A stretch of 64,000 bases of DNA from an uncultured Chloroflexia bacterium (GTDB lineage: Bacteria; Chloroflexota; Limnocylindria; Limnocylindrales; CSP1-4): positions 740,032-804,031 of the forward strand of contig CAVWIK010000003.1 of NCBI GenBank assembly GCA_963755115.1. Reading direction: 5' to 3'. Of this stretch, positions 6,148 to 55,436 are shown piece after piece (position 1 is the first letter of the stretch; the number at the start of each line of letters is the position of its first letter). The notes beneath the pieces were generated by a model. That model saw only the letters and a program-made list of their open reading frames with translations, was not told the DNA's origin and did no database searches. The translations under genes and the position numbers were made by a program.

Positions 6148-7458
6148 TCAGGGCGCGGTGCGTTGCCAGTCGAGATCGCCGTCCGATCCCCATGGGACCG
6201 TCGTCGCCGGCGCCCCCCTCGGGTCGAGCAGGTACGCCGTGGCGGGACCGCCGTCGCCGGAGAACATCAGGATCTTCGACGAATCCGGGGCCCACACCCA
6301 ATGCGCCGTGCCGTGCAGCGTCGGCCCGGTGTCGACCACGGGCCCTGTCCCGTCGGCCCGAACGACCGAGACGCCGTGCTCCGACAGGTCGTTGCCGTTG
6401 TGCCAGTAGGCGATCCACTTGCCGTCGGGCGACGGGACGGCCTCACCGTCCCACGCCGCCCCGCGCGGCAGGAACTCGTGATCGTTCGTGCCGTCGGCGT
6501 TCATCACCCACAGCCGGCAGCAGCCGCCATCGTCCCCGTGCTGGTAGAAGATCCGGCTCCCGTCGGCGGAGTAGGACGCCCCGGCGAAGCTGAGGTCGAT
6601 CCCAACCGGCACCGTCGGCTCGGCGAGCGTCCGCGGGTTCGAGCCGTCGGGGTCCATCGCGAACAGGCCCCACTTCCCATCCACGAGCGCGCGGTACAGG
6701 ATCGTGTCGGCCTGGGGCGGCCGGTACTGGACGAAGTCCATGCCGTCGGCGCTCGTGATGTGCTGGATCGCACCGCTACCGGTCGCGTCGAAGAGATCGA
6801 GCACGTTGACATGGCAGATCGTCGTCCCGCATCCATCGCTCGACTCGACCGGATGGATCACCGCGAGTCGGCGCCCGTCCGGCGTCCAGCTGAGCCACTT
6901 CCAGTCGGGGAGTGACTCGGGCGTGATCCGCTTGAGGTCCGAACCGTCGGCGTTCACGACATAGACGTCCACGGGATCCGCCCCGGCGGCTTGCGCCGTA
7001 CGCAGGAAGGCGACGCGCGTGCCGTCCGGCGAGAACTGGGGCACGCCAACGTCCTCGGGCCCCCCAACGAGAAGCCGGGTGACCCCGGTCTCGGGGTCGC
7101 CGACATAGAGGTCGCCATTCGAGACGTACGGGATCAACCCGTTGGCCGCGGGGCCGAACGGGGCGGGCAGCCGGGTCTGGTGCGTCCCGACGTACACGAC
7201 GGCGGCACCGACGAGGAGCGCGATGAGCACGAGCGCCACGGCGAGCGTGCGCCACGGGATGCGCGGCGCGACCGTCCGGCGCGTGGTGATGTCAGCCATG
7301 GGGATCCACCTTTCGGGGAACGTCCAGCCGGGACGTTGGGATCGGGACGAGGCGCGCTCGATGGCGGCCTCGAGATAGGCGGGGGTGCGGGCGTCCGCGA
7401 GCTCATCCATGAGCCCGGCGAGGACGCGATCGGCTCGGGAGGATCGATCCAAGGTCAT
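6148..7458 (-). CDS. Single-pass membrane protein with extracytoplasmic TolB/PD40-like beta-propeller; putative partner (anti-sigma-like) of the upstream ECF sigma
   Basis: ATGA overlap with the sigma gene. N-terminal motif SQRPGWTFPERWIPM followed by a TM helix. Repeated F/WSPDG..(V/L/I)A(F/Y) propeller motifs. Confidence 0.75.
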   Translation of the reverse strand: MTLDRSSRADRVLAGLMDELADARTPAYLEAAIERASSRSQRPGWTFPERWIPMADITTRRTVAPRIPWRTLAVALVLIALLVGAAVVYVGTHQTRLPAPFGPAANGLIPYVSNGDLYVGDPETGVTRLLVGGPEDVGVPQFSPDGTRVAFLRTAQAAGADPVDVYVVNADGSDLKRITPESLPDWKWLSWTPDGRRLAVIHPVESSDGCGTTICHVNVLDLFDATGSGAIQHITSADGMDFVQYRPPQADTILYRALVDGKWGLFAMDPDGSNPRTLAEPTVPVGIDLSFAGASYSADGSRIFYQHGDDGGCCRLWVMNADGTNDHEFLPRGAAWDGEAVPSPDGKWIAYWHNGNDLSEHGVSVVRADGTGPVVDTGPTLHGTAHWVWAPDSSKILMFSGDGGPATAYLLDPRGAPATTVPWGSDGDLDWQRTAP

Positions 7459-8021
7459 GCGACCGGCCCTCCGAGCGCAGGCGCGCCTGCGGACGTGACC
7501 TCCTCGATCGACACGGCGGAGCGCATGGCTCCGAGCGATCGATGGAGGCGTGACTTCGCGGTCCCGATCGGGATGCCGAGCATCTCGGCGACCCGCGGGA
7601 GCGGCAGGTCCAGGTAGAGGTGCAGGACGACGACGGCACGCGCCTCCGGCTCGAGCCGGGCCAGCACGCGATCGAGCAGGTCGCGTTCCGCGATCTGCCC
7701 CGCGCTGTCCTGCGTGGGAAGGTCGTTGATCTCGGTCAGCTCGACCTCGATGACCCGCCTCCGGCGTTGGCGGATGAGGTCGATGCAGGCGTGCGCCACC
7801 AGGCTGTGCAGCCAGTGGTCGAACGTCGCGGGGTCGCGCAGCCCCGGCAGGCTGCGCCAGGCCCGGATCAGGGTGTCCTGGACGGCGTCCTGGGCCAGTT
7901 CCGGGTCGCGAAGGATGAGACGAGCGGTGGCGTCCAGGCGCGCACCGGACGCGCGGGCGAGTTCAGCGAAGGCTTGCCGGTCGCCTCGCCTGGCTCGGTC
8001 CACGAGTCCGTGCTGGTCCAC
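7455..8021 (-). CDS. ECF-type RNA polymerase sigma-70 factor
   Basis: Region 2 DAVQDTLIRAWRSLPGLRDPATFDHWLH. Region 4 LGIPIGTAKSRLHRSL. GTG start. Confidence 0.9.
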   Translation of the reverse strand: MDQHGLVDRARRGDRQAFAELARASGARLDATARLILRDPELAQDAVQDTLIRAWRSLPGLRDPATFDHWLHSLVAHACIDLIRQRRRRVIEVELTEINDLPTQDSAGQIAERDLLDRVLARLEPEARAVVVLHLYLDLPLPRVAEMLGIPIGTAKSRLHRSLGAMRSAVSIEEVTSAGAPALGGPVA

Positions 8022-8140: not shown

Positions 8141-9428
8141 TCAGTCGAGCGCTGCCCGCTGCCAGCTCGGGCCGGACGCGATGTCGAATGGCATCGCGCG
8201 GACCTCGCCGGTAGCCACGTCGATCTCCGTCGGCTTGACCGCGCTGGCACCGAAGTGGTCAGTTTGGAGGGTCGGGATCGTAAGCAGGGTCAACCCATCC
8301 GGAGACCAGATGAAGTCGCTGTCGACGGCGGGAGTCGGACCGACCGCGACGACCGGGCCACCACCGACCGGCACGATGCCGATCGGACGGTTGAGGAACC
8401 CGGTGCTGCCCGGCGCCTGCTGCCACCGGTTGAAGGCGAGCGACTGCCCGTCGGGGGACCACTGCAGACCCTGTTCCCACCAGTCGACGCCCTCGTGCGT
8501 CAGCTGGTGCGGATCGGATCCGTCCGCGTTCATGACGCAGACGTTCGAGCCGACGTGGGTCACCGGGTCGCTGCAGATATACGCGATCCTCGTGCCGTCG
8601 GGCGACCAGCGGTACTCCGAAAGATCGGCGTAGTCGCCGTCCAGATGTGGAATCCAGGAGCAACCGCTTGTCCGACCCGTCGGCCTTCATGACCCAGAGA
8701 TCGATGACCGGGGTTTCGTCGTTCTCGAAGAGGATGGCGTCATCGGTGGCCCGGATCGTGCCATCGGTCCAGCGACCGATCGCGAGGTCCTTCGTCCCTG
8801 CGCCGCCGCCCACGTCGATCCGCTGGATCCGCCCGTGCAGCGTCGCGATGACCGCCGAGCCATCGGACGTGAGGTGGGCACGCTCATCGGTCGAGAGCGG
8901 ATCGGACGTGACCACGCGAGCGCCTGACCCGTCCGCGTTCGCCACCAGGATGTCATAGGCATTGGCGCTGCCTCGCTGGCGCGCGAACAGCACCCTGGTC
9001 CCGTCGAGCGAGAACTCCGGATCGATGTCCGTGTCCGGACCGGTGGTGATGGCCGTCGCGACACCCGTCACGGGGTCGACCGTGAAGATGTCGCCACCCT
9101 TCGCGTAGATCAGCAGGCCATTCGCAGCCAGACCGAACGGCGGCGGGAGCTTGGGCCGCGAGCCGATGAACGCCACGGTCCCGGCGATGAGCAGGGCGAT
9201 GATGAGCAGGGCCATCGCGATCGTCCGCGACGGCAGCCGTGGCGCGAACGTGGAGCGGTTGGTGATCTCAGCCATGGGAAGCCACCTTTCGGGGAACGTC
9301 CAGTAGGGCCGCTGGCGCTTGCGCGCTGTCTGGCCCAGGACGTCATCGATGTAGTCGGGGGTGGGACCCGCCGCCAGGTCGCCCAGGATCGAAGGCAGCG
9401 AGCGCTCGAGGCGCGTCGGCGTCGTCAT
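8141..9428 (-). CDS. Paralogous TM + beta-propeller partner protein; frame broken near nt 8655
   Basis: N-terminus RQRPYWTFPERWLPM plus TM helix. After ..DLWVMKADGSDKRLL the sequence continues in another frame as SWIPHLDGDYADLSEYRWSPDGTRIAY..VCVMNADGSDPHQL.. to the stop at 8141. Confidence 0.75.
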
Positions 9429-9985
9429 GCGACCTGCCCTCCCGGGACCGGCGTCGGGTGTTCGGGCTCAGTGCCGACCTCGGCCCGCATCACCCCGAGG
9501 GCGCGATGCAACCGGGTCTTGACCGTCCCGATGGGGATCTGCAGGGACGCCGCCACATCGCTGAGGGGCATCCCGAGGAAGTAGTGCAGCACGATGACCG
9601 CCCGGTCCCGTTCGTCGAGCCGGCGCATGGCCGAATCGACGAGCTCCCGATCGGCCAGCGCCCCGGCCAGGTCGGACGGGGTCGGCATGTCGATGGGCGA
9701 GAGCTCGACCTCGATCGGGCGCCGTCGACGGCGCCGGACCTGGTCGAGGCAGGCATTGACGGTCAGGCGGTGGAGCCAGGCATCGAACCGGTCGGGATCA
9801 CGCAACCCCGGCAGGTCGCGCCAGGCTCGGATGAGGGCCTCCTGGACCGCGTCGCGGGCCAGCTCCGGATCCCGGAGGATGAGGCGGGCGGCCCCGTCCA
9901 GCCGCGTGACGGCCCCGCGGGCGAGCTCGGCGAAGGCGTCATGCTCGCCCTGCCTCGCGCGTTCCACGAGTCCTCGCTGGTCCAC
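9425..9985 (-). CDS. ECF-type RNA polymerase sigma-70 factor (paralog of 7455..8021)
   Basis: VDQRGLVERARQGEHDAFAELAR.. aligns with MDQHGLVDRARRGDRQAFAELAR.. of the first sigma. GTG start at 9985. The listed 238-aa ORF has a non-protein-like N-extension. Confidence 0.85.
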   Translation of the reverse strand: MDQRGLVERARQGEHDAFAELARGAVTRLDGAARLILRDPELARDAVQEALIRAWRDLPGLRDPDRFDAWLHRLTVNACLDQVRRRRRRPIEVELSPIDMPTPSDLAGALADRELVDSAMRRLDERDRAVIVLHYFLGMPLSDVAASLQIPIGTVKTRLHRALGVMRAEVGTEPEHPTPVPGGQVA

Positions 9986-10184
9986 GGTCGCCTCGGATGT
10001 GGCGCGACCTGGTTGGCCGTGCTCGATAGCGTATGGCGTCCGCGTCCCCGAATTGGTTTTGGCGGGTGTCCGTACGCTGGAGGCGACGACCCGGCACGAA
10101 CGTTCATCCGTATCGGGCGATACCGGACGGTCGGCGGTCACCTACGATCGGTGGAGCTGTCGCGCACGATGGGAGGTCTCGGCC

Positions 10185-11816: not shown

Positions 11817-12572
11817 CTACTCCCAGCGGAACCAGCGGACGGCGACGACCAGGGCACCGAACGCCCAGGCGCCGACGATCGCGAGTGAACGGTCCCGAGG
11901 TCCCCGCCGGCGCCGAGCGCCGCGCGGAGCGCCTCGGCGAGCGCGGCAGCGGGCAGGAGCCCGCTGACCGTCCCGATCGGCCCGCCCAGCTGATCGACCG
12001 GGACGACGATCCCGCCGAGCAGCAGGCACGCGATGAAGAGTGCGTTGGCGATCGTCAGGGTCGCCTCGGCGCGGAGGGTGCCCGCGAGCGCCAGGCCGAT
12101 CCCCGCGAACGCCGCGGTCCCGACGAGGATCGCGATGACGACCGCCGGCAGGGACGCGCCCGGTCCCGGTCGCCAGCCGAAGACGGCGGCCGCGATGCCC
12201 ACGAGCACGACGGCCACGATCGATCTCGATCGCCACGACCGTCACGAGCTTGGCGGTGATGAGACCCGATCGCCCGAGCGGCGTGCCGCCGAGCCGTTTG
12301 AGGACGCCATACGCGCGCTCGTAGGCGGTCGCGATCCCGAGGTTGACCAGACCGGCGGCGACGATGGCGAGCGCCAGGGTGCCCGGCAGCAGGACGTCGA
12401 TCCGGGTCTGGCCGGCCGGGACGGGGACCAGGTCGACCGATCCGAAGAAGAGGAGCACGACCACCGGGATGCCGATGAGCGCGAGCACGTTCTCGCCGCG
12501 GCGCGCGGTGAGCCGGCCCTCCATGCGCACCTGCACGAGCGTGGCGGCCGGCCAGGACGCGGGCCGGCTCAC
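11817..12572 (-). CDS. ABC-2 type exporter permease; frame broken twice (near 12225 and 11893)
   Basis: GTGA overlap with the ATPase gene. TM-rich segments lie in three frames: ..NVLALIGIPVVVLLFFGS.., IVAVVLVGIAAAVFGW..LLGGIVVPVDQL.., and ..SLAIVGAWAFGALVVAVRWFRWE*. Confidence 0.65.
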   Translation of the reverse strand: MSRPASWPAATLVQVRMEGRLTARRGENVLALIGIPVVVLLFFGSVDLVPVPAGQTRIDVLLPGTLALAIVAAGLVNLGIATAYERAYGVLKRLGGTPLGRSGLITAKLVTVVAIEIDRGRRARGHRGRRLRLATGTGRVPAGGRHRDPRRDRGVRGDRPGARGHPPRRGDPDDRQRTLHRVPAARRDRRPGRSAGRADRDGQRAPARCRARRGAPRGARRRRGPRDRSLAIVGAWAFGALVVAVRWFRWE

Positions 12573-13483
12573 GGTGTCCCCACGAGCTCGAGGTAGGCGT
12601 CCTCGAGCGACCCGCCGACGGTACGGAGCTCCACGATGAGGCGGCCCGAGTCGCGCGGCCCAGCGCGCGACGGCAGCGATCCGCTCGGGGGTCGGCGCCT
12701 GGTCGGCGACGACGTAGCGGTCGCCGTCGGCGGCGATCGCCGTGGAGCCGGCGGCCGCGCCGAGCGACGCCAGCTCGTCCGGCTGCAGCGGTCGGTCGAG
12801 CCGGATCCGCAGCCGCGGACGCAGGCCCGCGGCGAGCTCGGCGGGCGTGCCCGCGGCGACGACCCGGCCGCCGACGAGGATGTGGACCCGGTCGGCGAGC
12901 CGCTCGACGTCCGCGAGGTCGTGGCTCGTCAGCAGGATGGCCGCGCCCGCGTCGCGCAGGTCGGCGATGAGGCGGCGCGTCGCCGTCCGGCCCTCCGGGT
13001 CCATGCCCGCGGTCGGCTCGTCGAGGATCAGGACCTCGGGTCGCCCGATGAGCGCCAGCGCGAGCCCGAGCCGTTGCCGCTCGCCGCCGGACAGTCGCCG
13101 GTAGCGCGTGTCGCCACGCCGGTCAGGCCGACCAGCTCGAGCACCTCGTCGGGATCGCGCGGGTCGGCGTGGAAGCCCGCGTACTGGACGATGGTCTCGC
13201 GCGGGCGGGCGCGCATGTCGATGCCGCCGTCCTGGAGCATCAGCCCGACGCGGGCGCGCAGGTCCCGCGCGCCGGAGGCCGGATCGAGGCCGAGGACCCG
13301 GACACGGCCGCCGTCGGCGCGACGGTAACCCTCGACGGTCTCGACGGTGGTCGTCTTGCCCGCGCCGTTCGGCCCGAGCAGCGCGACGAGCTCGCCCGGC
13401 TGGACCTCGAGCGAGACGGCGTCGACCACGACCCGTTCGCCGTAGCGCTTGACGAGGCCATCGATCTCGATGGCGGCGGTCAC
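12569..13483 (-). CDS. ABC transporter ATP-binding protein (ABC-2/DrrA-like); frame broken twice (near 13112 and 12655)
   Basis: Walker A GPNGAGKTT, signature LSGGERQRL, Walker B LILDEPT. The C-terminal DSGRLIVELRTVGGSLEDAYLELVGTP* is in a third frame. Confidence 0.8.
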
Positions 13484-13935
13484 GGCGCGATCCGCTCGAA
13501 TTGCCGTTCGAAGTCCGCGTCCTGCAGCTCGCCGACCTGGATCGAGCGGATGACCCCGTTCGCATCGACGAAGTAGGTCTGCGGCCGTCCGGCGACCCGA
13601 TAGGCGTTCTTCGCGGCCTTGTCGGGATCGACGACCGTCGGCCAGGTCGCGCCGTACTCGGCGACGAAGTCCTGGGCCGGGGCGACCGGGTCGTCGGTCA
13701 GGACGCCGACGACCGCGAGCCCGTCGGCCGCGTGCTCCTTGAGCTTCGCCGCGAGGAGCGGGAACTCATCGCGGCACGGCACGCAGGACGGGCCCCAGAA
13801 GTTGATGACCACGGGCCGGCCGCGCAGGTCGGCGAGCCGGAACGGGGCGCCGTCGAGGGTCGTGCCGACGATGTCCGGCGCCGGGTCCCCGGTCGCGGCC
13901 TTCGGGCCGCCGCGGCCCGCGCCCACGAAGACCAC
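13480..13935 (-). CDS. TlpA/ResA-like thioredoxin-fold thiol:disulfide oxidoreductase
   Basis: WGPSCVPC (CxxC) motif. The frame is open upstream to 14031 and encodes a TM anchor RRPILLALAIALVTTIGVVVFVG with no ATG/GTG/TTG, so the true start is unresolved. Confidence 0.8.
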   Translation of the reverse strand: MVFVGAGRGGPKAATGDPAPDIVGTTLDGAPFRLADLRGRPVVINFWGPSCVPCRDEFPLLAAKLKEHAADGLAVVGVLTDDPVAPAQDFVAEYGATWPTVVDPDKAAKNAYRVAGRPQTYFVDANGVIRSIQVGELQDADFERQFERIAP

Positions 13936-14008
13936 GACGCCGATGGTCGTGACCAGGGCGATGGCGAGCGCGAGCAGGATCGGTCGGCGCGGCGTGGCGG
14001 TGCCTCGC

Positions 14009-15118
14009 CTACTTGATGGTCGCGGTGCCCGTCATGTTCGAATGGACCGAGCAGACGAACGTGTAGGCGCCCGCCCCGAGGGCCGGGACGTCGTAGAGGC
14101 GGGTCTCGACGCCGGGGAAGATCGCGCCCTTCCAGACGCTGACGCCGGAGCCGTCGATGATGTCGACGTTGTGGGTGATGCCCGCGTCCTCGTTGTCGAA
14201 GGCGATCGTGAACGGCTTGTCGGCCGGGGCCTCGAACGACGTCTGGAGGAAGGCGACGCCCTTGGCCGTGATGTTCACGTCACCGGTGATGGCCGATGGC
14301 GCCGGCCCGCCCGACGGCCCCGACCCGCCCGACGGGGCGGGTCCACCCGACGGCGCCGGCGACCCGGACGGCGTGGCATCGGAGCCGCTCGCCGAGCCCG
14401 GTGGCAGCAGGCCGGTCTGGAACAGGATCCCGCCGACGAACACGACCGCCAGCAGGCTGAAGAGCAGCGACGGCGTCCGCGGGGCCGGGCCGCTGGCGAG
14501 ATGGCCCGTGCGATCGGCCTCGACCGTCCGGCGGTACTCGGCGATCGAATCGACCAGCCAGCCGACGAGCGTCGCGACGAGCGCGAGGACGCCGGCCAGG
14601 AGCATCCAGCCGCCATAGACGAGCCCGAAGAAGAGGATCGCGACGCCGATCGCGCCCAGGATCGGCCGGAACGAGGGGCCCGGCATGTGGACGCCCGGCG
14701 GCGGGCCGTCGTGGATCACCGCCGGCAGGGCCGACGGGGTCGGGCCGACGTCGTGGTCGTAGATCCGGATCCCCTCGGCCAGCCAGTAGAGGAGCGTCAG
14801 CACGAGCGCGACGATGCCCAGCCACAGGATCGGGCCGCCCCAGACGAGCCCGAAGAGCAGCAGGGCCGCACCGACGGCCGCGAAGATCGGCGCGAACGAC
14901 GGCCCGGGCATGTGGATGCCGGCGGGCGTGCCGGGCTCGATCCTGGTCTTGCCCCGCCGCGCCGGCGGCTGGGCCCGGAACTTGCGCGCGATCCAGATGA
15001 TCCAGACGACGACGACCACCATGATCGCGACGGGGATGAGCGCGATGAGCGCTCCCCAGTCGGGCGTGACGAGGAGCGCCGTCAGGTCGAGGAACCAGTT
15101 CCAGATCGCGTCGAGCAT
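14009..15118 (-). CDS. Polytopic membrane protein with two CtaF-like internal repeats and a C-terminal type-1 copper cupredoxin domain
   Basis: Repeats GIHMPGPSFAPIFAAVG.. and GVHMPGPSFRPILGAIG.., each with 2 TM helices. PSG-rich linker. Cupredoxin ligands H (ITHNVDI) and C-x2-H-x2-M (FVCSVHSNM). Confidence 0.7.
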   Translation of the reverse strand: MLDAIWNWFLDLTALLVTPDWGALIALIPVAIMVVVVVWIIWIARKFRAQPPARRGKTRIEPGTPAGIHMPGPSFAPIFAAVGAALLLFGLVWGGPILWLGIVALVLTLLYWLAEGIRIYDHDVGPTPSALPAVIHDGPPPGVHMPGPSFRPILGAIGVAILFFGLVYGGWMLLAGVLALVATLVGWLVDSIAEYRRTVEADRTGHLASGPAPRTPSLLFSLLAVVFVGGILFQTGLLPPGSASGSDATPSGSPAPSGGPAPSGGSGPSGGPAPSAITGDVNITAKGVAFLQTSFEAPADKPFTIAFDNEDAGITHNVDIIDGSGVSVWKGAIFPGVETRLYDVPALGAGAYTFVCSVHSNMTGTATIK

Positions 15119-15159
15119 CGAGGGGACGGCTCAGATGGACGCGCTGCGGGGCAGAGGCG

Positions 15160-15351
15160 TCACTCGCGGGACCCGGCGACGAGCACGTAGGCCATCATCC
15201 CGGCCGCGACGCTGAGGGCGATGAGCATCGTCACCCCGGCGTAGTCGACGTGCCAGCCGCCGAGTGTCGGCACGGCCCAATACACGATGCCGACGATCAG
15301 GAAGATGACGCCGACGAGCGCCGCGTTGCGGGGATGTCGAAGCGGATGCAT
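15160..15351 (-). CDS. Small two-TM protein in the oxidase operon (subunit-IV-like)
   Basis: SD AGGAGG 5 nt upstream of the ATG. Two hydrophobic helices. Sits between ctaE and the CtaF-like gene. Confidence 0.5.
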   Translation of the reverse strand: MHPLRHPRNAALVGVIFLIVGIVYWAVPTLGGWHVDYAGVTMLIALSVAAGMMAYVLVAGSRE

Positions 15352-16028
15352 GACGTCCTCCTAGACGCCGTCTTGCCCGGCAGGAGATAGAGCAGCGAGA
15401 ACAGCAGGATCCACACGACGTCGACGAAGTGCCAGTACAGCGACGCCGCCTCGGCCGCGTCATGGTGTTTCGCCGAGAACTGGCCGGCCAGGCCGCGATA
15501 CAGCACCACCGACAGCATGATGACGCCGCCGAAGACATGGGCGCCGTGGAACCCGGTCAGGGTGAAGTACGTGGTCCCGAACGTCCCCGACGACAGGGTC
15601 ACGCCCTCGTGACCGAGCAGCCAGTAGTCGAGGCCCTGCATCACGAGGAAGATCCCGCCCAGGACGACCGTGACCGCGAAGGCCCGGACGAACCCGACGT
15701 GATCGTTTCGACGGATCGCCCAGATGCCCCACTGGCACGTGATCGAGCTGAGGATCAGCAGGATCGTCGCCGGCAGGACCAGCGGCAGCATGTCGACGTG
15801 GAACGGCACCTGCGCCGGCAGCTTCTCCGGATCGAAGGGCGGCCACTGCAGGGCGTTGGCCCGGACATTGAAGTAGGCGGCGAACAGGCCGGAGAAGAAC
15901 ATCACCTCCGAGGTGATGAACAGCAGCATCCCGAGGACGGGGTTGCTGATCCCGCCCGATGCGTCGTGGTCGAGGCCGCCGAAGTGCTGCTCTTCGGCCG
16001 GGATGAGCGCGGTGGAGTCGGTCGTCAT
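15297..16028 (-). CDS. ctaE: Cytochrome c oxidase subunit III
   Basis: ..FITSEVMFFSGLFAAYF..FHGAHVFGGVIML..LYWHFVDVVWILLF. The last 20 or so codons overlap the next gene and look non-native, so the true stop may be earlier. Confidence 0.85.
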   Translation of the reverse strand: MTTDSTALIPAEEQHFGGLDHDASGGISNPVLGMLLFITSEVMFFSGLFAAYFNVRANALQWPPFDPEKLPAQVPFHVDMLPLVLPATILLILSSITCQWGIWAIRRNDHVGFVRAFAVTVVLGGIFLVMQGLDYWLLGHEGVTLSSGTFGTTYFTLTGFHGAHVFGGVIMLSVVLYRGLAGQFSAKHHDAAEAASLYWHFVDVVWILLFSLLYLLPGKTASRRTSCIRFDIPATRRSSASSS

Positions 16029-16041
16029 CGTCGTGGCCCGC

Positions 16042-17679
16042 TCAATGGTCCGTCGTGGGGGTCATCGACGGGTGTCGGGCGTCGAACACGGGCCGTTCCG
16101 AGCGGATATCGGGCAGGTGGTCGAAGTTGTACGGCGGCGGCGGGGAGCTCGTCGCCCACTCGAGCGTGTTGCCCTCCCACGGATCGTCGCCGGCCGGCTT
16201 GCCGGCCCGCAGCGAGATGAAGATGTTCCACAGGAACGGCAGCATCGAGAGCGCGATCGTGAAGCCGCCGATCGTCGCCACGAGGTTGAGGTCGTTCCAG
16301 CCGGCCGCCGACGAGTAGTCGGCGATGCGCCGCGGCATCCCGGCGAGCCCGAGCTCGTGCATCGGGAAGAACGTCATGTTGAACCCGATGAACATCAGCA
16401 CGAACTGGGTCTTGCCCAGGGTCTCGTTGAGCATCCGGCCGGTCATCTTCGGGAACCAGTAGTAGAAGCCGGCCATGACGCCGAAGACCGAGCCGCCGAA
16501 CAGCACGTAGTGGAGGTGAGCGACGACCCAGTAGGTGTCGTGGAGGGCGAAGTCGACGGGGACCGCGGCGCTGAACGCCCCGTTGATGCCGCCGATCAGG
16601 AACATGCTGAGGAACCCGAGCGCGAACAGCAGCGGGGTCTTGAGCATGAGCTGGCCGCGCCACATGGTGAAGACCCAGTTGAACATCTTCACGCCGGTCG
16701 GGACCGCGATCAGGAACGTCATGAGGCTGAAGAACGGCAGGTAGACCGCGCCCGTCGTGAACATGTGGTGCGCCCACACGGAGAACCCGAGGGCGCCGAT
16801 CGCCGCGGTCGCGAAGATGAACGCCTTGTAGCCGAACAGCGGCTTGCGGCTGAACACCGGCAGGATCTCGCTGATCATGCCCATCGCGGGCAGGATCATC
16901 ACGTAGACCGCCGGGTGCGAGTAGAACCAGAAGACGTTCTGGTAGAGGATCGGATCACCGCCGTTACGCGGGTCGAAGAAGGCCCCGCCGTAGTTCCGGT
17001 CGATGAACAGCATGATCAGCGCGCTCGTGATGACCGGCGTGGCCAGCATCACAAGGACCGAGGTGACGAGCACGGTCCAGGCCATGATCGGCATCCGGAA
17101 GAGCGTCATCCCGGGCGCCCGCATCTTGAAGATCGTGACGAGGAAGTTGATGGCGCCGAGGATGGAGCTCGTGCCGATCAGGACGAGCGCGACGATCCAG
17201 AGGTCCTGTCCCGAACCGGTCGCCGCCAGCGGCTGGTCCTCGGACAGTGGCGCGTAGCTCGTCCAGCCGGCCGCGGCGGTCCCGCCGGTCACGAACCCGC
17301 TCAGGAGCAGGATCCCGCCCAGCGGCAGCATCCAGAACGACAGCGCGTTGATCCGCGGGAACGCCATGTCGGGGGCGCCGAGCTGGAGCGGGACGACGTA
17401 GTTGCCGAAGCCCGCCAGCATCGGGATCACGAACAGGAAGATCATGAACGTGGCGTGCATCGAGAACGACTCGTTGTAGCCGATGTCGGTCAGGAACTGG
17501 AGGCCGGGGAAGGCGAGCTCCGACCGGACCGCGAGCGCCAGCACGCCGCCGATGAAGAAGAAGACGAACGAGTTGATGACGTAGAGGATCCCGATCTTCT
17601 TGTGGTCGGTCGTCGTCACCCAGTCGTACAGGCCACTCCGGTAGGCGGAGGCGGCCGGCGTCAACGTCGTCGTTGCCAT
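16042..17679 (-). CDS. ctaD: Cytochrome c oxidase subunit I (haem-copper oxidase)
   Basis: 545 aa, intact. Motifs ..WFYSHPAVYVMILP.., ..HHMFTTG.., ..VVAHLHYVLFGG. Confidence 0.95.
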   Translation of the reverse strand: MATTTLTPAASAYRSGLYDWVTTTDHKKIGILYVINSFVFFFIGGVLALAVRSELAFPGLQFLTDIGYNESFSMHATFMIFLFVIPMLAGFGNYVVPLQLGAPDMAFPRINALSFWMLPLGGILLLSGFVTGGTAAAGWTSYAPLSEDQPLAATGSGQDLWIVALVLIGTSSILGAINFLVTIFKMRAPGMTLFRMPIMAWTVLVTSVLVMLATPVITSALIMLFIDRNYGGAFFDPRNGGDPILYQNVFWFYSHPAVYVMILPAMGMISEILPVFSRKPLFGYKAFIFATAAIGALGFSVWAHHMFTTGAVYLPFFSLMTFLIAVPTGVKMFNWVFTMWRGQLMLKTPLLFALGFLSMFLIGGINGAFSAAVPVDFALHDTYWVVAHLHYVLFGGSVFGVMAGFYYWFPKMTGRMLNETLGKTQFVLMFIGFNMTFFPMHELGLAGMPRRIADYSSAAGWNDLNLVATIGGFTIALSMLPFLWNIFISLRAGKPAGDDPWEGNTLEWATSSPPPPYNFDHLPDIRSERPVFDARHPSMTPTTDH

Positions 17680-17688
17680 CGGGGCTCC

Positions 17689-18897
17689 TTACTGGACCGT
17701 CAGCGTGCCGGTCATGTTGGGATGCACGTCGCACTTGAACGGATAGGTGCCGGCGGCGAGCGGACCGACCGTGTACGGCTTGACGGCCGGTCCGGTGAAG
17801 ATCTCGCCCTGGAAGACGGACGTCCCGTCGATCTGGTCCTTGAAGATCTGGATGTTGTGCGGCTGGCTGTCCTTGTTGTCGAACTGGATCGTGATGGGGC
17901 TGTTCGCCGGGGCGCTCAGCTCGGTCGTCGTGAACGCGACGTTCTCGGCGGTGACCGTGAGCTCCGTTCCGCCGGCGGCCGGTCCGCTGGGCTGCGGCGC
18001 CCCGCTGGGCTGCGGCGCCCCGCTGGGCTGCGGCTCGCCCGAGGCGCCGGCGGAGGCTGACGGAGCCGGCGGCGGCGCTGAGGCGACCTTGTCGGCGAGC
18101 CACTTGTCGAAGTCGGCGCCGGTCATGGCATGGACCTCGAAGAGCATCAGCCGGTGACCGGCGCCGCACAGCTCGGCGCACTGGCCGCGGAACGTCTGGC
18201 CGGCCTGGTCCTCGTCGACGTTGAAGTCGAACTTGTTGACCCGACCCGGCACGACATCGCGCTTGAAGAGGAATTGCGGCACGTAGAAGGCGTGGATGAC
18301 ATCCGGGCTCGTGAGGTACAGCTGGATGGTCCGGCCGGTCGGGACGTGGAGGCCGCCGTCCGGGCCGGTCGGCAGGAACTCCGTGTAGAGCGGCGCGGCC
18401 GGCGGCTGGACCAGCGGGTCGTAGTCGGGCGGCATGTAGTCGAATTCCCACTGGAACTGGCCGGCCACCGCCCGGATCTTCGTGTCCACCTGCGACGTGA
18501 CCGTATCGACCGCGTTCAGCGTCTGCCAGCTGATCACGAACAGGAAGGCGACGATGAGCGTCGGGACGACCGTCCAGATGATCTCGGCCGTCGAGTTGCC
18601 GTGGGTCTGGGGCGGGAGCTCGGTGTCGGTCGGCTTCCGGCGGTAGGCGATGATCGTCCAGACCAGCAGCCCCTCGACCAGGAAGAAGATCGCCGCGGCG
18701 ATCAGGAACACGATGTTGTAGAGGTCGCGGATGTGGGCGCCCTGCTCGGTCACCGCGACCGGCGGGTAGAGGCTCTCGACGACGCGCGCCCCGATGCCGG
18801 TCACGTAGAGGACGCCGACCACGACAGCCGCCGCGACGAGCGTCGCCACCCAGATCAGCCCGTGACGGGGGCGGCGCGCGCTAGGGGAGCTCGACAT
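17689..18897 (-). CDS. ctaC: Cytochrome c oxidase subunit II with a C-terminal type-1 cupredoxin fusion
   Basis: CuA site CAELCGAGHRLM. Linker GAPQPS x3. Tail ..PHNIQIF..YPFKCDVHPNMTGTLTVQ*. Start taken at MSSSPSARRPRHGLIW (SD GAGG upstream). Confidence 0.9.
   Translation of the reverse strand: MSSSPSARRPRHGLIWVATLVAAAVVVGVLYVTGIGARVVESLYPPVAVTEQGAHIRDLYNIVFLIAAAIFFLVEGLLVWTIIAYRRKPTDTELPPQTHGNSTAEIIWTVVPTLIVAFLFVISWQTLNAVDTVTSQVDTKIRAVAGQFQWEFDYMPPDYDPLVQPPAAPLYTEFLPTGPDGGLHVPTGRTIQLYLTSPDVIHAFYVPQFLFKRDVVPGRVNKFDFNVDEDQAGQTFRGQCAELCGAGHRLMLFEVHAMTGADFDKWLADKVASAPPPAPSASAGASGEPQPSGAPQPSGAPQPSGPAAGGTELTVTAENVAFTTTELSAPANSPITIQFDNKDSQPHNIQIFKDQIDGTSVFQGEIFTGPAVKPYTVGPLAAGTYPFKCDVHPNMTGTLTVQ
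17984..18037 (-). repeat. 3 x 18-bp tandem repeat encoding the GAPQPS linker of CoxB
   Basis: CCGCTGGGCTGCGGCGCC occurs at 17984, at 18002, and in diverged form at 18020. Confidence 0.85.
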
Positions 18898-19139: not shown

Positions 19140-20178
19140 ATGCCGCCGATGCGCTCTCGAACGGTCCTCTCGCGGATCGTCGTGACCGGCGGGACGGTCG
19201 CCGGCTGGCTGGTCGCGGCCGGGCCGGCGGTCGGACACGGGCTGGCTCCGACCGAGCCGCCGACGCCTGCCTCGCTCCTCTTCGGCTGGAGCTTCGAGCC
19301 GCTCCCGACCCTCGGCATCGTCGTCTCGCTGCTCTGGTGGCGCTGGGCAGTCCGGCGCGTGAACGCCGCGCATCCGAACAACCCCGTCCCGGTCCGCCGG
19401 ACGGTCGCGTTCGTCGGCGCGATGGTGGCCCTCGCCGTCGCGCTGATGTCGGGGATCGAGCACTACGACACGACGCTGTTCTCGCTCCACATGGTCCAGC
19501 ACATCCTGCTGATGCTCGTCGCGGCACCGCTCCTCGCGCTCTCCGGGCCGGTGACCCTGATCCTGCGGGTGTCGTCGTCCGAGACGCGCCATCGCTGGAT
19601 CCTGCCGATCCTCCATTCACGGGTGCTGCGGGTGCTCTCGCATCCGATCGTGGCGTCGATCGTCTTCGCGGTCGTGTTGTGGAGCGCGCATTTCTCCGCC
19701 CTCTTCGACGCGGCGCTCGAGAACCCGAACATCCACGACGCGGAGCACCTCCTCTTCCTGGGGAGTGCCATGTTGTTCTGGTGGCCGGCCGTCGCCGTCG
19801 ATCCGCTCCCGTACCGGATGTCGCACCCGGCGCGGATCCTCTATCTCTTCATGCAGATGACGATGAACACGTTCATGGCGATGGTCATCCTGGCCGCCGG
19901 CGGCGTCCTCTACCCGCACTACGAGACGGTCATCCGGGCCTGGGGGCCGACCCCGCTCGACGACCAGAAGCTGGCGGCCGGGTTCATGTGGATCGCCGGA
20001 GACCTCATCTTCATCGGGGCGATGCTGGCGGTCATGGCCGGCTGGATCCGGTCCGACGAGCGCGAGTCGTCGCGGACCGACCGCGTCGCCGCGATCGGAG
20101 ATGGCCGCCATCCGGGTGCGCGAGCGGCGCCTCGCCGAGCGCCTCGCCGAGGAGCACGGGGACTCGCGGCCCACCTGA
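19140..20178 (+). CDS. ctaG: Cytochrome c oxidase assembly factor CtaG (caa3-CtaG family membrane protein); frame broken near nt 20095
   Basis: ..LFSLHMVQHILLMLVAAPLLAL..FWWPAV... The end is recovered in another frame as EMAAIRVRERRLAERLAEEHGDSRPT* (TGA at 20176..20178). Confidence 0.75.
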
Positions 20179-20225
20179 TCGCGTGCCCCGGCGGTCGGGA
20201 GCCCGGCAGCACCTGGCGGGCCGGC

Positions 20226-21239
20226 CTACCCCTCGGCGGGGATCGGGGCCGCCAGGTACTCGCGGTACCGCTCGGGGTCGACGTTCCCGCCGCTCACGAC
20301 CGCGACGACGGACCCATCGAGCCCGTCGAGACCGGCTTCGGTCCGGCGGAACGCGAGGGCCGCGACGGACAGGGCGCCGGACGGCTCGGCCACGAGCCGG
20401 CTCTGTTCGGCGGCCAGCCGGACGCCTGCCGCGATCTCCGCCTCGCTCACCGTGACGATCGCGTCGAGGTAGGCCCGCAGGTGCGCGAAGGTCCGCTGCC
20501 CGATCGCCTGCGTGCGCGTCCCGTCGGCGATGGTCCGCGACACGATCTCGGCGTCCCAGCGCACGATCTCGCCCTTCGCGAGCAAATCGCGCGCGTCGGC
20601 CCCGAGCTCCGGCTCGACCCCGACGACGCGGACGTTCGGCCGGAGCGCTTTCACGGCGGTCGCGATGCCACTGGCCAGCCCCCCACCGCCGATCGGCACG
20701 AGCACGGCCGCGAGGTCCGGCAGGTCCTCGACGAGCTCGAGGCCGATCGTCCCCTGACCGGCGATGACCCGGTCGTCGTCGAAGGGCGGGACGACGGTCA
20801 GTCCGCGCTCGGCGGCGGTCGCGCGCGCCACCCGTTCCCGCTCCTCGCTGGCGGTCCCGACGACGATGACCTCGGCGCCGTCGGCGAGCACCCGCTCGCG
20901 CTTGATCGCCGGAGCGTCCGACGGCATGACGATGACGGCCGGGATGCCGAGCAGTCGGGCGGCTCGCGCCACGCCCTGGGCGTGGTTGCCCGACGAGTAG
21001 GTGATGACGCCGCGCGCACGGTCCGCGGGATCGAGCCCGGCGATCGTGGCGTAGGCGCCACGGAGCTTGAACGCGCCGATCGGCTGGAGCGACTCGGCCT
21101 TGAGGAAGTGCCGGTCCTCGGGTGGCCCGAACGGGACGAGCGGCGTCCGGACGACGATGCCGCGCAGGACCTCGGCCGCGGCACGGATCGCATCGATCGT
21201 GACGAGCGGCGCCACCTCGGCCGGGGCATCGGACGCCAT
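20226..21239 (-). CDS. PLP-dependent threonine/serine ammonia-lyase (short, catabolic-type threonine dehydratase)
   Basis: PLP-lysine motif SLQPIGAFKLRGAY, ..SSGNHAQG.., glycine loop GGGGL. Confidence 0.85.
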   Translation of the reverse strand: MASDAPAEVAPLVTIDAIRAAAEVLRGIVVRTPLVPFGPPEDRHFLKAESLQPIGAFKLRGAYATIAGLDPADRARGVITYSSGNHAQGVARAARLLGIPAVIVMPSDAPAIKRERVLADGAEVIVVGTASEERERVARATAAERGLTVVPPFDDDRVIAGQGTIGLELVEDLPDLAAVLVPIGGGGLASGIATAVKALRPNVRVVGVEPELGADARDLLAKGEIVRWDAEIVSRTIADGTRTQAIGQRTFAHLRAYLDAIVTVSEAEIAAGVRLAAEQSRLVAEPSGALSVAALAFRRTEAGLDGLDGSVVAVVSGGNVDPERYREYLAAPIPAEG

Positions 21240-21584
21240 TCAGCGCGCCCCCCGGTCGACGTCGCGCTGACAGTCGATGCAGTAGGCGGCCCAGGGGAGC
21301 GCCTCGAGGCGAGCCGGGGCGATCGGCTTCGAACAGCGGATACAGACGCCGAACGTCCCGGCGTCGAGGCGGGCGAGAGCGGCGTCCACCAGGGCGAGCT
21401 GGGTCTCGGCCCGGTCGCGCAGCGCGAGGTCGCGCTGCTGCTCGAAGACCTGGGTTGCGGCGGCCGCCTGCGACCCGTAGGTCATCTGGCCGGGCGCGAT
21501 GATGGCCTCGCCCAGCTCCTCGAGCAGTCGGGCGCGTTCCGCCAGCAACGCGGCGCGGGCGACGTCCGGGTCGATCGGCTCCAT
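21240..21584 (-). CDS. TraR/DksA family C4 zinc-finger protein
   Basis: C-terminal CIRCSKPI..(17)..CIDCQ preceded by a coiled-coil region. Confidence 0.8.
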   Translation of the reverse strand: MEPIDPDVARAALLAERARLLEELGEAIIAPGQMTYGSQAAAATQVFEQQRDLALRDRAETQLALVDAALARLDAGTFGVCIRCSKPIAPARLEALPWAAYCIDCQRDVDRGAR

Positions 21585-21673: not shown

Positions 21674-21847
21674 ATGGCCATCGAGATCGATCCCGTCTGC
21701 GGGATGGAGGTCGACACGGCGACCTCGGAGCTGTCGTTCGACTACAAGGGCGCGACCTACTGGTTCTGCGGCCGTGGTTGCCTGCTCGAGTTCAAGGACG
21801 ACCCGGCCGCGTACCTCCCCGCGGACGATCCGGCGCCCACCGCCTAG
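21674..21847 (+). CDS. YHS-domain (TRASH-like) metal-binding protein, 57 aa; not in the ORF track
   Basis: MAIEIDPVCGMEVDTATSELSFDYKGATYWFCGRGCLLEFKDDPAAYLPADDPAPTA*. SD GGAG 6 nt upstream. Confidence 0.75.
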   Translation: MAIEIDPVCGMEVDTATSELSFDYKGATYWFCGRGCLLEFKDDPAAYLPADDPAPTA

Positions 21848-27767: not shown

Positions 27768-28313
27768 GTGCAGCTCATGCCCCGCCGGATCGCCCTGCTC
27801 GCCGCGCTCGTGGCCGTGGTCGCCGTGGTCGCCGCCTGCGACTCGGGGACCGTCCCGGCGACGCCTCGGCCGGTCGCCGGGACGCCGGACGCACCGCGGG
27901 AGGTGAACCTCATCGCGAAGGACTACAGCTTCCTCCCGCCGGTCCTCGACCTCGTCCCGGGCGAGACGATCCTGCTCCACGTCATCAACGGCGGCCTTGA
28001 GGTGCACGAGGCGGTCATCGGCGCCGGGGCCGTGCAGGATGCGTGGGAGGTCGCCGAGGGCGCGACGCGCGGAGCGCCGCCCGGGCCGACGCCGGTCGTC
28101 TCGGTCCCGCCCGACGTCGCGGGGCTCCGCGTCGTGGTCCGATCCGGCGAGCGGGCCGACGTCCGCTGGACCGTGCCGCTGGACGTGCCCGCCGACGCCC
28201 CGGTGACGACGCCACCGACCGCGGCCGCCTGGATCGTGGGGTGCCACATCCCCGGCCATCTGGCGAACGGGATGTGGATCCCGATCCGATGGGTCGTCGA
28301 CCCGGCACCCTGA
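27768..28313 (+). CDS. Cupredoxin-domain lipoprotein (type-1 copper site)
   Basis: Lipobox VVAAC. Ligand pattern ..LEVHEAV.. and GCHIPGHLANGM (C-x4-H-x4-M). Confidence 0.75.
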   Translation: MQLMPRRIALLAALVAVVAVVAACDSGTVPATPRPVAGTPDAPREVNLIAKDYSFLPPVLDLVPGETILLHVINGGLEVHEAVIGAGAVQDAWEVAEGATRGAPPGPTPVVSVPPDVAGLRVVVRSGERADVRWTVPLDVPADAPVTTPPTAAAWIVGCHIPGHLANGMWIPIRWVVDPAP

Positions 28314-54788: not shown

Positions 54789-55385
54789 TCAGCGCTCCGC
54801 CGAGGCCTCCGACTCCCGCACCGTGACGCCTTCGCGGCGCAGCAGGGCACGCTTCCGCGCGAGCGCCGCGTCGCGTGAGCCCCAGGCGTCGCCGCCGTAC
54901 CCGCCGATCGTCCCGTCCGCGGCGATGACCCGGTGGCACGGGACGAGGAGCGTCACGGGGTTCCGCCCGAGCGCGCCCCCGACCGCACGGGCGGCCCGCG
55001 GTGCGCCGATCCGGCGCGCGATCTCCCCGTAGCTCGCGGTCCGGCCCCACGGGATCCCGGCGACGGCGGCCAGGACCGACCGATCCCACGCCGGGCGGTC
55101 CGAGAGGTCGACCGGCACGGCCTCGGACGGGGGCCGGCCGGCGACCATCTCGCCGATGGCCCGCTGCGCCCGGTCGAGCAGCGCGTGCCGGGGATCGCCG
55201 GCCGGGGCGACGGCCTCGGGGAGCACGGCGCCGTCGAGACGGCGCTCGACCATCGCCGCGAACGCGTCATCGGTCATGGCCGACTCCGCGGCCGCGATGC
55301 CGCCGTCGGTCGCGGCGAGGTGGAGCGGGCCCCACGGGCCGGGGATGGTCCGGACGATCGCGCGGGCCGCCAGGGGATCGGTCAT
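54789..55385 (-). CDS. ogt: Methylated-DNA--protein-cysteine methyltransferase
   Basis: Active site LVPCHRVI. ..[28 protein letters not shown]... Start at [11 protein letters not shown]. The longer listed ORF is over-extended. Confidence 0.88.
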
Positions 55386-55419
55386 CGCGACCAGTGTGGC
55401 GGCGTCGGGCCCGGGTGAT

Positions 55420-55436
55420 ATACTCCCAGGGAGTAT
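55420..55436 (+). promoter_or_regulatory. Perfect 17-bp palindrome ATACTCCC-A-GGGAGTAT overlapping a TATACT -10 and the copA ATG (CsoR/RcnR-style operator candidate)
   Basis: 8-bp arms read directly. The palindrome ends within the copA start codon (55435..55437). Confidence 0.55.

Follow-up and report, generated by a model that had tools for sequence, protein, structure and literature searches.

In monoderm cells, electron supply to the terminal oxidase has been solved by a fused cytochrome c (caa3 oxidases), by the diheme protein QcrC, or by anchored auracyanin or halocyanin. The bcc-aa3 supercomplex uses no soluble carrier; two tethered redox domains bridge to CuA. Here, we analyzed a 64,000-nucleotide stretch of DNA with a G+C content of approximately 70% (the window; positions 740,032 to 804,031 of contig CAVWIK010000003.1, assembly GCA_963755115.1) from an uncultured Chloroflexota bacterium. 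It carries an oxidase operon in which subunit II (CoxB) and a 369-aa membrane protein each end in a predicted type-1-copper (T1Cu) cupredoxin domain. Our preferred reading, to which we assign a probability of roughly 0.7, is that this is an A2-type oxidase operon whose two built-in cupredoxins act as tethered carriers feeding CuA.

Related arrangements have been described elsewhere. AcoP is a membrane-anchored protein that is encoded in a cytochrome oxidase operon and is associated with the oxidase. AcoP of Acidithiobacillus ferrooxidans has been described as a single-domain cupredoxin (PMC10804444). In haloarchaeal ba3 oxidases (Halobacterium salinarum OE_4073R, Haloarcula), halocyanin is fused to CbaD (subunit IIa), and this fusion has been taken as support for halocyanin being the oxidase donor (PMC3128077, PMC8305020). 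Auracyanins of Chloroflexus and Roseiflexus are reported to accept electrons from alternative complex III (ACIII) (PMC5826079).

Predicted cupredoxin domains at the C-termini of CoxB and a 369-aa membrane protein

The oxidase genes form part of a tight minus-strand cluster at 11.9–18.9 kb of the window, comprising coxB, coxA, coxC, the genes for a 63-aa and the 369-aa protein, a TlpA/ResA-like gene, and the genes for an ABC ATPase and an ABC-2 permease. The initial annotation, made from the translations, had proposed that CoxB and the 369-aa protein both end in paralogous T1Cu domains with a His-Cys-His-Met site and that neither has a CxxCH heme c motif. All motifs that it quoted for the two proteins are present in the translations at the positions given below, and both proposals were borne out by the profile searches, invariant ligands and models that follow.

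CoxB (17689..18897, minus strand) consists of a COX2_TM segment, a CuA domain, a disordered linker rich in Pro and Ser, and the C-terminal cupredoxin. Its core (residues 1–277; 18067..18897), with the N-terminal helices and the CuA cupredoxin domain, matched Pfam COX2_TM and COX2 and the NCBIfam CoxB model (161 bits against a cutoff of 147.7), and the best Foldseek matches of its AlphaFold2 (AF2) model were Thermus caa3 subunit II (2yev_B) and mycobacterial CtaC. The CuA stretch, RGQCAELCGAGHRLM (also read as CAELCGAGHRLM), is followed by the linker SGEPQPSGAPQPSGAPQPSG. The CuA ligands H202, C240, C244, H248 and M251 (H...CxxxCxxxH..M) were invariant in 45 CoxB homologues. M1 was also invariant in these homologues, which indicates that the ATG at 18897 is the correct start, as was W150 in a QFQWEF motif. 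W150 is presumably the equivalent of the usual electron-entry tryptophan, as judged by eye against the Paracoccus motif.

The CoxB linker (residues 278–307; 17977..18066) is rich in Pro, Ser, Gly and Ala and contains three copies of (E/A)PQPSG. Behind it, the cupredoxin (residues 308–402 and the stop codon; 17689..17976) contains PHNIQIF, ends in YPFKCDVHPNMTGTLTVQ (equivalent to FKCDVHPNMTGTLTVQ) directly before the stop codon, and matched Pfam Cupredoxin_1 (E=2.2e-14) and Copper-bind. Its four putative copper ligands (H347, C389, H392 and M395) were invariant in the 45 homologues, and the tail was closest by sequence to amicyanin.

The 369-aa protein (14009..15118, minus strand) comprises six predicted transmembrane (TM) helices, a linker and a cupredoxin. 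It contains two G[IV]HMPGPSF.PI repeats, a linker rich in Pro, Ser and Gly, the motif THNVDI and, before the stop codon, FVCSVHSNMTGTATIK. In Pfam it matched Cupredoxin_1 (E=5.6e-07) and, at two places, Cyt_c_ox_IV (E=1.5e-10). The cupredoxin occupies residues 275–369 and the stop codon (14009..14296), with H316, C356, H359 and M362, which were invariant in 50 homologues; the last TM helix (residues 215–235 in the AF2 model) and the linker (residues 238–274) lie at 14297..14476. One 488-aa homologue (P0037) has two tandem cupredoxin domains after the membrane part.

The two tails are paralogous (46% identity, E=8e-27). In the AF2 models both cupredoxin domains had pLDDT values above 93, and the linkers preceding them had values below 50. 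The top Foldseek matches of the 369-aa model were auracyanins A and B, Roseiflexus auracyanin, amicyanin and plastocyanin, at a probability of 1.00 (including 2aan, 6kol and 1qhq); these fold matches refer to the 369-aa model, and the CoxB tail was assigned through the Cupredoxin_1 and Copper-bind profiles. Amicyanins were also the closest Protein Data Bank (PDB) sequences to both tails (1id2, E=2e-06), and 91 of 95 tails have a short C-x2-H-x2-M loop. Such a loop is typical of amicyanin. As judged from ligands, profiles and predicted folds, both C-terminal domains are genuine paralogous cupredoxins of the type-1-copper type. No CxxCH motif was present in CoxB, the 369-aa protein or any of the 95 aligned family members, and the only cysteines are residues 240, 244 and 389 of CoxB and residue 356 of the 369-aa protein.

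The tail classes are reciprocally distinct. None of the 95 sequences had its nearest neighbor in the other class, and mean identity was approximately 60% within a class and 48% between classes, which indicates that the duplication predates the sampled diversity and that both copies were kept.

Oxidase core and the duplicated subunit III hairpin

CoxA (16042..17679, minus strand; Pfam COX1, E=1.8e-163) is subunit I of a predicted A-family heme-copper oxidase. It carries FWFYSHPAVY at residue 255, the A2-type YSHPAVY variant of the HPxVY motif with the CuB histidine and the cross-linked tyrosine. A1-type enzymes have a glutamate in a GHPEV motif. On this motif and the profile matches, the oxidase is assigned to the A-family (A2-type) of heme-copper oxygen reductases. 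The closest solved chains were the mycobacterial and corynebacterial CtaD for CoxA (E=2e-197) and the actinobacterial CtaE (mycobacterial, corynebacterial) for CoxC, and the core subunits as a set appear closest to actinobacterial CtaC, CtaD and CtaE. Neither ctaA nor ctaB was found among the annotated open reading frames (ORFs), which cover part of the 64 kb, and the label "aa3" is used as a name only.

CoxC (15297..16028, minus strand) covers only positions 78–255 of the 258 in the Pfam COX3 profile, which indicates a short five-TM form of subunit III that lacks the hairpin of helices 1 and 2. The missing element has a likely counterpart in the membrane part of the 369-aa protein. There, repeat 1 (residues 60–125; 14744..14941) and repeat 2 (residues 135–200; 14519..14716; AF2 helices 151–168 and 171–204) each consist of an HMPGPS motif and a two-helix hairpin, and they are 54% identical (E=3e-21). 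A profile of this repeat matched residues 8–64 of mouse COX3, the N-terminus with helices 1 and 2 (E=3.5e-4), bovine and Rhodobacter sphaeroides COX3 (E approximately 0.03), and residues 580–623 of Bacillus subtilis QoxB, the extra C-terminal helices of subunit I (E=0.005). H-M-x-x-P-S-x-x-P is common to the 369-aa repeats and the COX3 and QoxB alignments. These profile matches are modest but consistent. The His-Met pair of HMPGPS was also considered as an extra copper site, which was ruled out, since H-M-x-x-P-S is found in mitochondrial COX3 as well.

The hairpin is a movable module. Mitochondrial and proteobacterial enzymes have it within subunit III, whereas the bo3 and aa3-600 quinol oxidases have it joined to subunit I, as the equivalent of helices 13–14 in QoxB/CyoB; in the Thermus caa3 structure, helices 1 and 2 of subunit III are reportedly supplied by a separate small subunit IV. 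Since the local CoxC lacks the hairpin and the 369-aa protein has it twice, the 369-aa protein is probably a structural subunit anchored in the oxidase complex. The match of the 369-aa protein to the model of actinobacterial CtaF (Cyt_c_ox_IV, PF12270; 41.7 bits, cutoff 26.9), which is confined to the C-terminal half of the model (profile positions 81–125 of 132, covered twice), fits the same picture. The label "CtaF-like" in the initial annotation holds as far as this profile match goes; it is too narrow for a protein with two copies of the COX3 helices 1–2 hairpin.

The AF2 model placed six TM helices in the 369-aa protein. With these helices, the basic loop RKFRAQPPARRGKTR and the cytoplasmic N-terminus of COX3, the cupredoxin would lie on the outer face (P side) of the membrane, the side of CuA.

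Distribution and conservation of the fusions

Database searches returned more than 1,558 homologues with the 369-aa architecture and more than 2,874 with the CoxB fusion. The latter are labeled only "cytochrome c oxidase subunit II", and the former "plastocyanin" or "hypothetical protein". These numbers, together with the invariant copper ligands, put both architectures far beyond chance. In contigs of the Genome Taxonomy Database (GTDB, one genome per species), 303 loci encode the 369-aa protein, with the order of genes conserved, and nearly all are named Candidatus Limnocylindria, Limnocylindrales or, generically, Chloroflexota. The host class is the uncultured monoderm Chloroflexota class Candidatus Limnocylindria (Ellin6529). 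One contig with a complete cox cluster of the Limnocylindria type (DASPHN010000207.1) is labeled Candidatus Saccharimonadales and is probably mis-binned. A look-up of the exact 369-aa sequence found no identical database record.

We fetched 86 loci, of which 63 have a complete CoxB and 50 have full flanks. The 369-aa protein with its cupredoxin was found together with cta genes in 86/86 loci, so that the supposed relation of this protein to the oxidase held without exception. Where CoxB is complete, 59 of 63 loci have the tail, which stands between the core of CoxB and CoxA.

Because genes in the window are frameshifted (ctaG and the ABC genes, described below) and several of the relatives come from long-read metagenome-assembled genomes (MAGs), one might suspect that the fusions are assembly or gene-calling artifacts, with frameshifts joining neighboring genes. 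However, ORFs fused in the same way recur across thousands of independent database sequences (JGI, ENA, NCBI, Logan), which excludes an assembly artifact; the linkers are in frame, the order of domains is identical, and the position of the tail is the same in the 59 loci. We regard this explanation as effectively refuted.

The 63-aa gene (15160..15351, minus strand) lies between coxC and the 369-aa gene in 86/86 loci. Its start is overlapped by the coxC ORF by 55 nt (15297–15351), and a perfect AGGAGG stands 6 nt 5' of its ATG (15352–15365), which supports its translation. The product has two hydrophobic, probably transmembrane, segments; Pfam and PDB searches gave no significant match. It is probably a small oxidase subunit. 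We also considered it as the N-terminal half of actinobacterial CtaF and rejected this, since a PDB profile search and Pfam scans of the individual members gave no significant match. In four loci (L019, L033, L036 and L037) the protein has a loop insertion of approximately 10 residues.

A more distant CoxB-cupredoxin family (36–48% identity), the members of which are labeled Dehalococcoidia, was found in a different operon, and its tail is homologous to that of CoxB (E=2e-26). Relatives of the CoxB tail are also found, three to five in tandem, in proteins encoded on metagenome contigs. A three-domain protein (L091, 1293–2636) is encoded within a different cox cluster (COX4_pro, CtaG, the three-cupredoxin protein, a TlpA-like protein and a CtaA-CtaB fusion), and the gene for a five-domain protein (L090, 3827–5737) adjoins genes for a PQQ dehydrogenase, for a cupredoxin of one domain and for subunit I of cytochrome bd. 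Such tandem proteins may be copper "wires".

Proposed route of electron delivery

The architecture, ligand sets, folds, subunit homology and co-conservation described above are our observations, and from them we infer the copper occupancy of the two domains, the direction and route of electron flow, and their working in series or in parallel. In the scheme that we propose, the tethered T1Cu domains would take up electrons, one at a time, from a quinol-oxidizing complex or a dehydrogenase, and the electrons would then pass to CuA, to the hemes and to O2. The cupredoxins would fill the role that the fused cytochrome c has in caa3 oxidases and would probably replace the usual cytochrome c. One is carried at the C-terminus of CoxB, where a disordered linker of approximately 30 residues joins it to the CuA domain, and the other at the C-terminus of the six-helix subunit on a linker of approximately 37 residues. 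Both would face the outer (P) side, and flexible linkers of 30–37 residues would be long enough to reach CuA and probably also a neighboring complex.

Several features point to tethered carriers: the redox-type ligands are invariant, the linkers appear flexible, one domain is fused to subunit II at the place where caa3 enzymes have heme c, the second is on a probable structural subunit, the envelope is probably of the monoderm type, and the halocyanin-CbaD fusion and AcoP provide precedents. The clade Limnocylindria was inferred to be monoderm in a genome survey (bioRxiv 10.1101/2021.08.23.457424). Such an envelope would not retain soluble carriers, which would give a reason to tether them. 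As far as sequence comparison can tell, the covalently tethered electron-entry carrier is the best-supported reading of the locus.

Several findings weigh against it. Both tails are acidic, with mean net charges of about -4.4 and -5.8; the TM part of the 369-aa AF2 model is of only moderate confidence (pLDDT approximately 50–80); in four loci (L019, L033, L036 and L037) CoxB has no tail, with the cupredoxin kept on the 369-aa homologue; and the Dehalococcoidia operon has no 369-aa protein. The last two findings indicate that the presence of both domains is not obligatory. Since both tails are acidic, there is no obvious electrostatic complementarity for a relay from tail to tail, and such complementarity, which we had considered as support for a relay, was dropped. 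In some lineages either domain is found alone, and this, with the acidic character of both, slightly favors independent or parallel function over an obligatory tail-to-tail relay.

The same data bear on the possibility that, instead of forming one relay, the two cupredoxins let in electrons in parallel, each from a donor of its own, for example one from a quinol-oxidizing complex and the other from periplasmic dehydrogenases. The four tail-less CoxB proteins and the Dehalococcoidia operon, with its cupredoxin on CoxB only, would fit this arrangement, as would acidic tails that are ill suited to dock with each other, the five-domain relative adjoining a PQQ dehydrogenase, and the finding that the closest sequence relatives are amicyanins. 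Amicyanin serves methylamine dehydrogenase. However, neither the window nor the 50 loci with full flanks showed a dehydrogenase gene linked to the operon, and both domains are kept together in 59 of 63 species-level loci. We consider separate ports for separate donors unlikely.

A more far-reaching version of the tethered-carrier reading is that Limnocylindria have a cytochrome-c-free, all-copper delivery system, in which the two T1Cu domains relay electrons within a supercomplex from a quinol-oxidizing complex that lacks a terminal heme c to CuA. We put this forward tentatively, as a possibility at rather long odds. The relay would be a copper analogue of the diheme QcrC bridge of the actinobacterial bcc-aa3 supercomplex, and the duplicated subunit III hairpin would be its docking interface. 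Among the likely coding frames of the window, no ORF had a CxxCH motif. No gene for a Rieske protein, a cytochrome b (bc complex) or ACIII was found among 20 further ORFs scanned, which represent part of the 64 kb.

Accessory genes and copper maturation

The flanks of the oxidase genes are highly conserved. In the 50 full-flank loci, 49–50 keep the genes for a YHS-domain protein, a DksA-like zinc-finger protein, a PALP-family enzyme, the divergent CtaG, the cox proteins, the TlpA-like protein, the ABC ATPase and the ABC-2 permease. The divergent, upstream ctaG and the YHS gene were each found in 50/50; the ABC ATPase lies directly downstream of the TlpA-like gene in 49/50, and the ABC-2 permease is present in 49/50. 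Gene calls, read for three loci, place the YHS, DksA/TraR and PALP genes upstream of the cox cluster.

CtaG (19140..20178, plus strand, divergent; Pfam Caa3_CtaG, E=3.1e-71) is of the Bacillus/caa3 type. Proteins of this type are assembly factors for CuB insertion. The reading frame of ctaG shifts near its 3' end, at approximately 20070–20100, and the conserved C-terminus, ending in IRVRERRLAERLAEEHGDSRPT before the stop codon, sits in another frame (20040–20180). The TlpA/ResA-like thiol-disulfide oxidoreductase (13480..13935, minus strand) matched Pfam AhpC-TSA (E=2.6e-25) and Redoxin and NCBIfam ResA (E=2e-28) and DsbE, with all NCBIfam scores under the equivalog cutoffs, and has a CxxC in WGPSCVPC. 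Its membrane anchor, with the sequence PILLALAIALVTTIGVV, is encoded at 13936–14008, ahead of the first canonical start codon (ATG, GTG or TTG; 13935). Translation may begin at a non-canonical codon, or the sequence may have a further indel at this place, so that the true start is uncertain. A TlpA-like gene occupies the same position in those related loci that reach far enough, and the reductase plausibly keeps the cysteines of CuA or of the T1Cu sites reduced. The 57-aa YHS-domain protein (21674..21847, plus strand; Pfam YHS, E=2.9e-15) may be a metal-handling or metal-binding accessory protein.

Downstream, the DrrAB-like ABC ATPase and ABC-2 permease (11960..13483, minus strand; Pfam ABC_tran) are frameshifted in the window: by tblastn, the ATPase (13246–12581) is in three pieces and the permease (12572–11960) in two, and the relatives are intact. 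These frameshifts and that of ctaG are probably indel errors of a long-read MAG; otherwise the genes would be pseudogenes. A role of the exporter as a copper or heme system (NosFY- or CcmAB-like) was dropped, because orthologues without frameshifts gave no family matches other than the generic DrrA and DrrB. No Sco or PCuAC homologue was found among the annotated ORFs, which cover the cluster fully and the rest of the 64 kb in part. The initial annotation had seen here a self-contained module for copper maturation, with genes joined through GTGA overlaps. CtaG and the TlpA/ResA-like protein fit such a module, as may the conserved YHS protein, but the exporter is generic and Sco and PCuAC were not found among those ORFs, so that the module has only partial support; the GTGA coupling is real between the TlpA-like and ABC genes (13483..13480) and is not seen at the other junctions of the cluster.

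In this setting, the cupredoxins might themselves serve in maturation, as modules or chaperones that deliver copper to CuA or CuB in the manner of PCuAC, rather than as electron carriers. The operon stands among assembly genes (CtaG, the TlpA/ResA-like thioredoxin and the YHS protein), and with no Sco or PCuAC among the annotated ORFs a chaperone function is otherwise unfilled locally; PCuAC also has a cupredoxin-like fold. PCuAC, however, uses His and Met ligands without Cys, whereas both tails have an invariant classical redox type-1 set of His, Cys, His and Met with an amicyanin-type loop, and their nearest folds and sequences are those of electron-transfer cupredoxins. The Cys in the ligand set makes a chaperone role very improbable.

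Two further genes of the window may concern copper proteins. An ORF at 27777..28313 (plus strand; 178 aa), approximately 9 kb from the cox operon, has a lipobox in a lipoprotein-like signal (VAAC), the motif EVHEAVI and GCHIPGHLANGM. Its sole match was a sub-threshold one to Pfam sulfocyanin (SoxE; E=0.02), and the PDB search gave no sequence match. It may be a free, lipid-anchored blue-copper protein and is a third cupredoxin candidate. Approximately 36 kb from the operon, at 55033–57531 (plus strand), lies the gene for a CopA-like heavy-metal ATPase of the P1B type that has an HMA domain, possibly a copper exporter that feeds the assembly of cuproproteins.

Other features of the window

The remaining neighbors of the cox cluster are the DksA/TraR-type zinc-finger protein (21240–21584, minus strand) and the PALP-family enzyme (20226–21239, minus strand). 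Further away, two paralogous ORFs resembling ECF-type sigma factors (7455–8021 and 9425–10141, minus strand) flank an ORF at 8259–9428, which overlaps one at 8141–8563 and is itself apparently frameshifted; these observations come from the translations.

Comparison with known oxidase systems

The initial annotation could not match this locus to a described oxidase architecture. That judgment stands for the CoxB-cupredoxin fusion, for which we found no paper, and falls short in two respects: a halocyanin-CbaD fusion has been published, and the CoxB fusion is abundant in databases. A description of a cupredoxin fused to CoxB or to a subunit IV/III hairpin was not found in the searchable full-text literature, a body that most subscription-journal papers lie outside, and the searches returned only papers on the halocyanin-CbaD fusion and on the cupredoxin AcoP. 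The thousands of entries named "cytochrome c oxidase subunit II" or "plastocyanin" hide the cupredoxin-fusion architecture. The fusions offer natural T1Cu-CuA tandem proteins for the study of intramolecular electron transfer from copper to copper, and the operon gives a concrete model of copper-dependent respiration in these lineages that can be put to the test.

The caa3 oxidases of Thermus thermophilus (2YEV), Rhodothermus marinus and Bacillus resemble the present system in being A-family enzymes with a carrier fused C-terminally to subunit II, behind CuA, and in structure the CoxB core is matched best by 2YEV subunit II. Like CoxA here, the Thermus and Rhodothermus enzymes belong to the A2 type. 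In caa3 the carrier is a heme c domain with CxxCH, whereas here it is a predicted type-1 copper cupredoxin and CxxCH is absent; the hairpin subunit, with its two copies of the hairpin, bears a second such carrier.

The halocyanin-CbaD proteins are alike in that a blue-copper protein is fused to a small TM accessory subunit of a heme-copper oxidase. They belong, however, to an archaeal B-family oxidase, and the cupredoxin stands N-terminal to the single helix of IIa, which is unrelated to the COX3/CtaF hairpin; here the oxidase is assigned to the A-family, and the cupredoxin stands C-terminal to a six-helix membrane part of the COX3/CtaF type. Subunit II is unfused in the haloarchaeal system, and that fusion is known without experimental characterization.

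Among solved structures, CoxA and CoxC are closest to subunits of the aa3 oxidase within actinobacterial bcc-aa3 (CtaC, CtaD, CtaE and CtaF of Mycobacterium and Corynebacterium), which also matches CoxB closely in structure, and the 369-aa protein matches the Pfam model of CtaF, in its C-terminal half only and twice. Actinobacterial CtaD is of the A1 type with a GHPEV motif, in contrast to the YSHPAV motif of CoxA. The bridge in bcc-aa3 consists of two heme c domains on QcrC of complex III, whereas the copper domains described here are on the oxidase.

Auracyanins are membrane-tethered type-1 copper carriers from the same phylum. Like amicyanin, they are free-standing proteins (lipid- or helix-anchored) and not domains of oxidase subunits, and their identity to the tails is approximately 20%. 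AcoP, too, is a protein of its own; its copper site is an atypical "green" one, and the proteobacterial iron-oxidation system to which it belongs also contains cytochromes c.

Taken together, the principle of a donor tethered to the oxidase is already known. The elements for which we found no description in that literature are a predicted T1Cu domain on subunit II of an A-family oxidase, another on a CtaF-like subunit with a duplicated subunit III hairpin, and conservation throughout a class. To the solutions found in other monoderms, this operon would add a further one, blue-copper domains fused to two oxidase subunits, one of which has a duplicated hairpin, in a design kept across an abundant uncultured class of soil, sediment and freshwater Chloroflexota.

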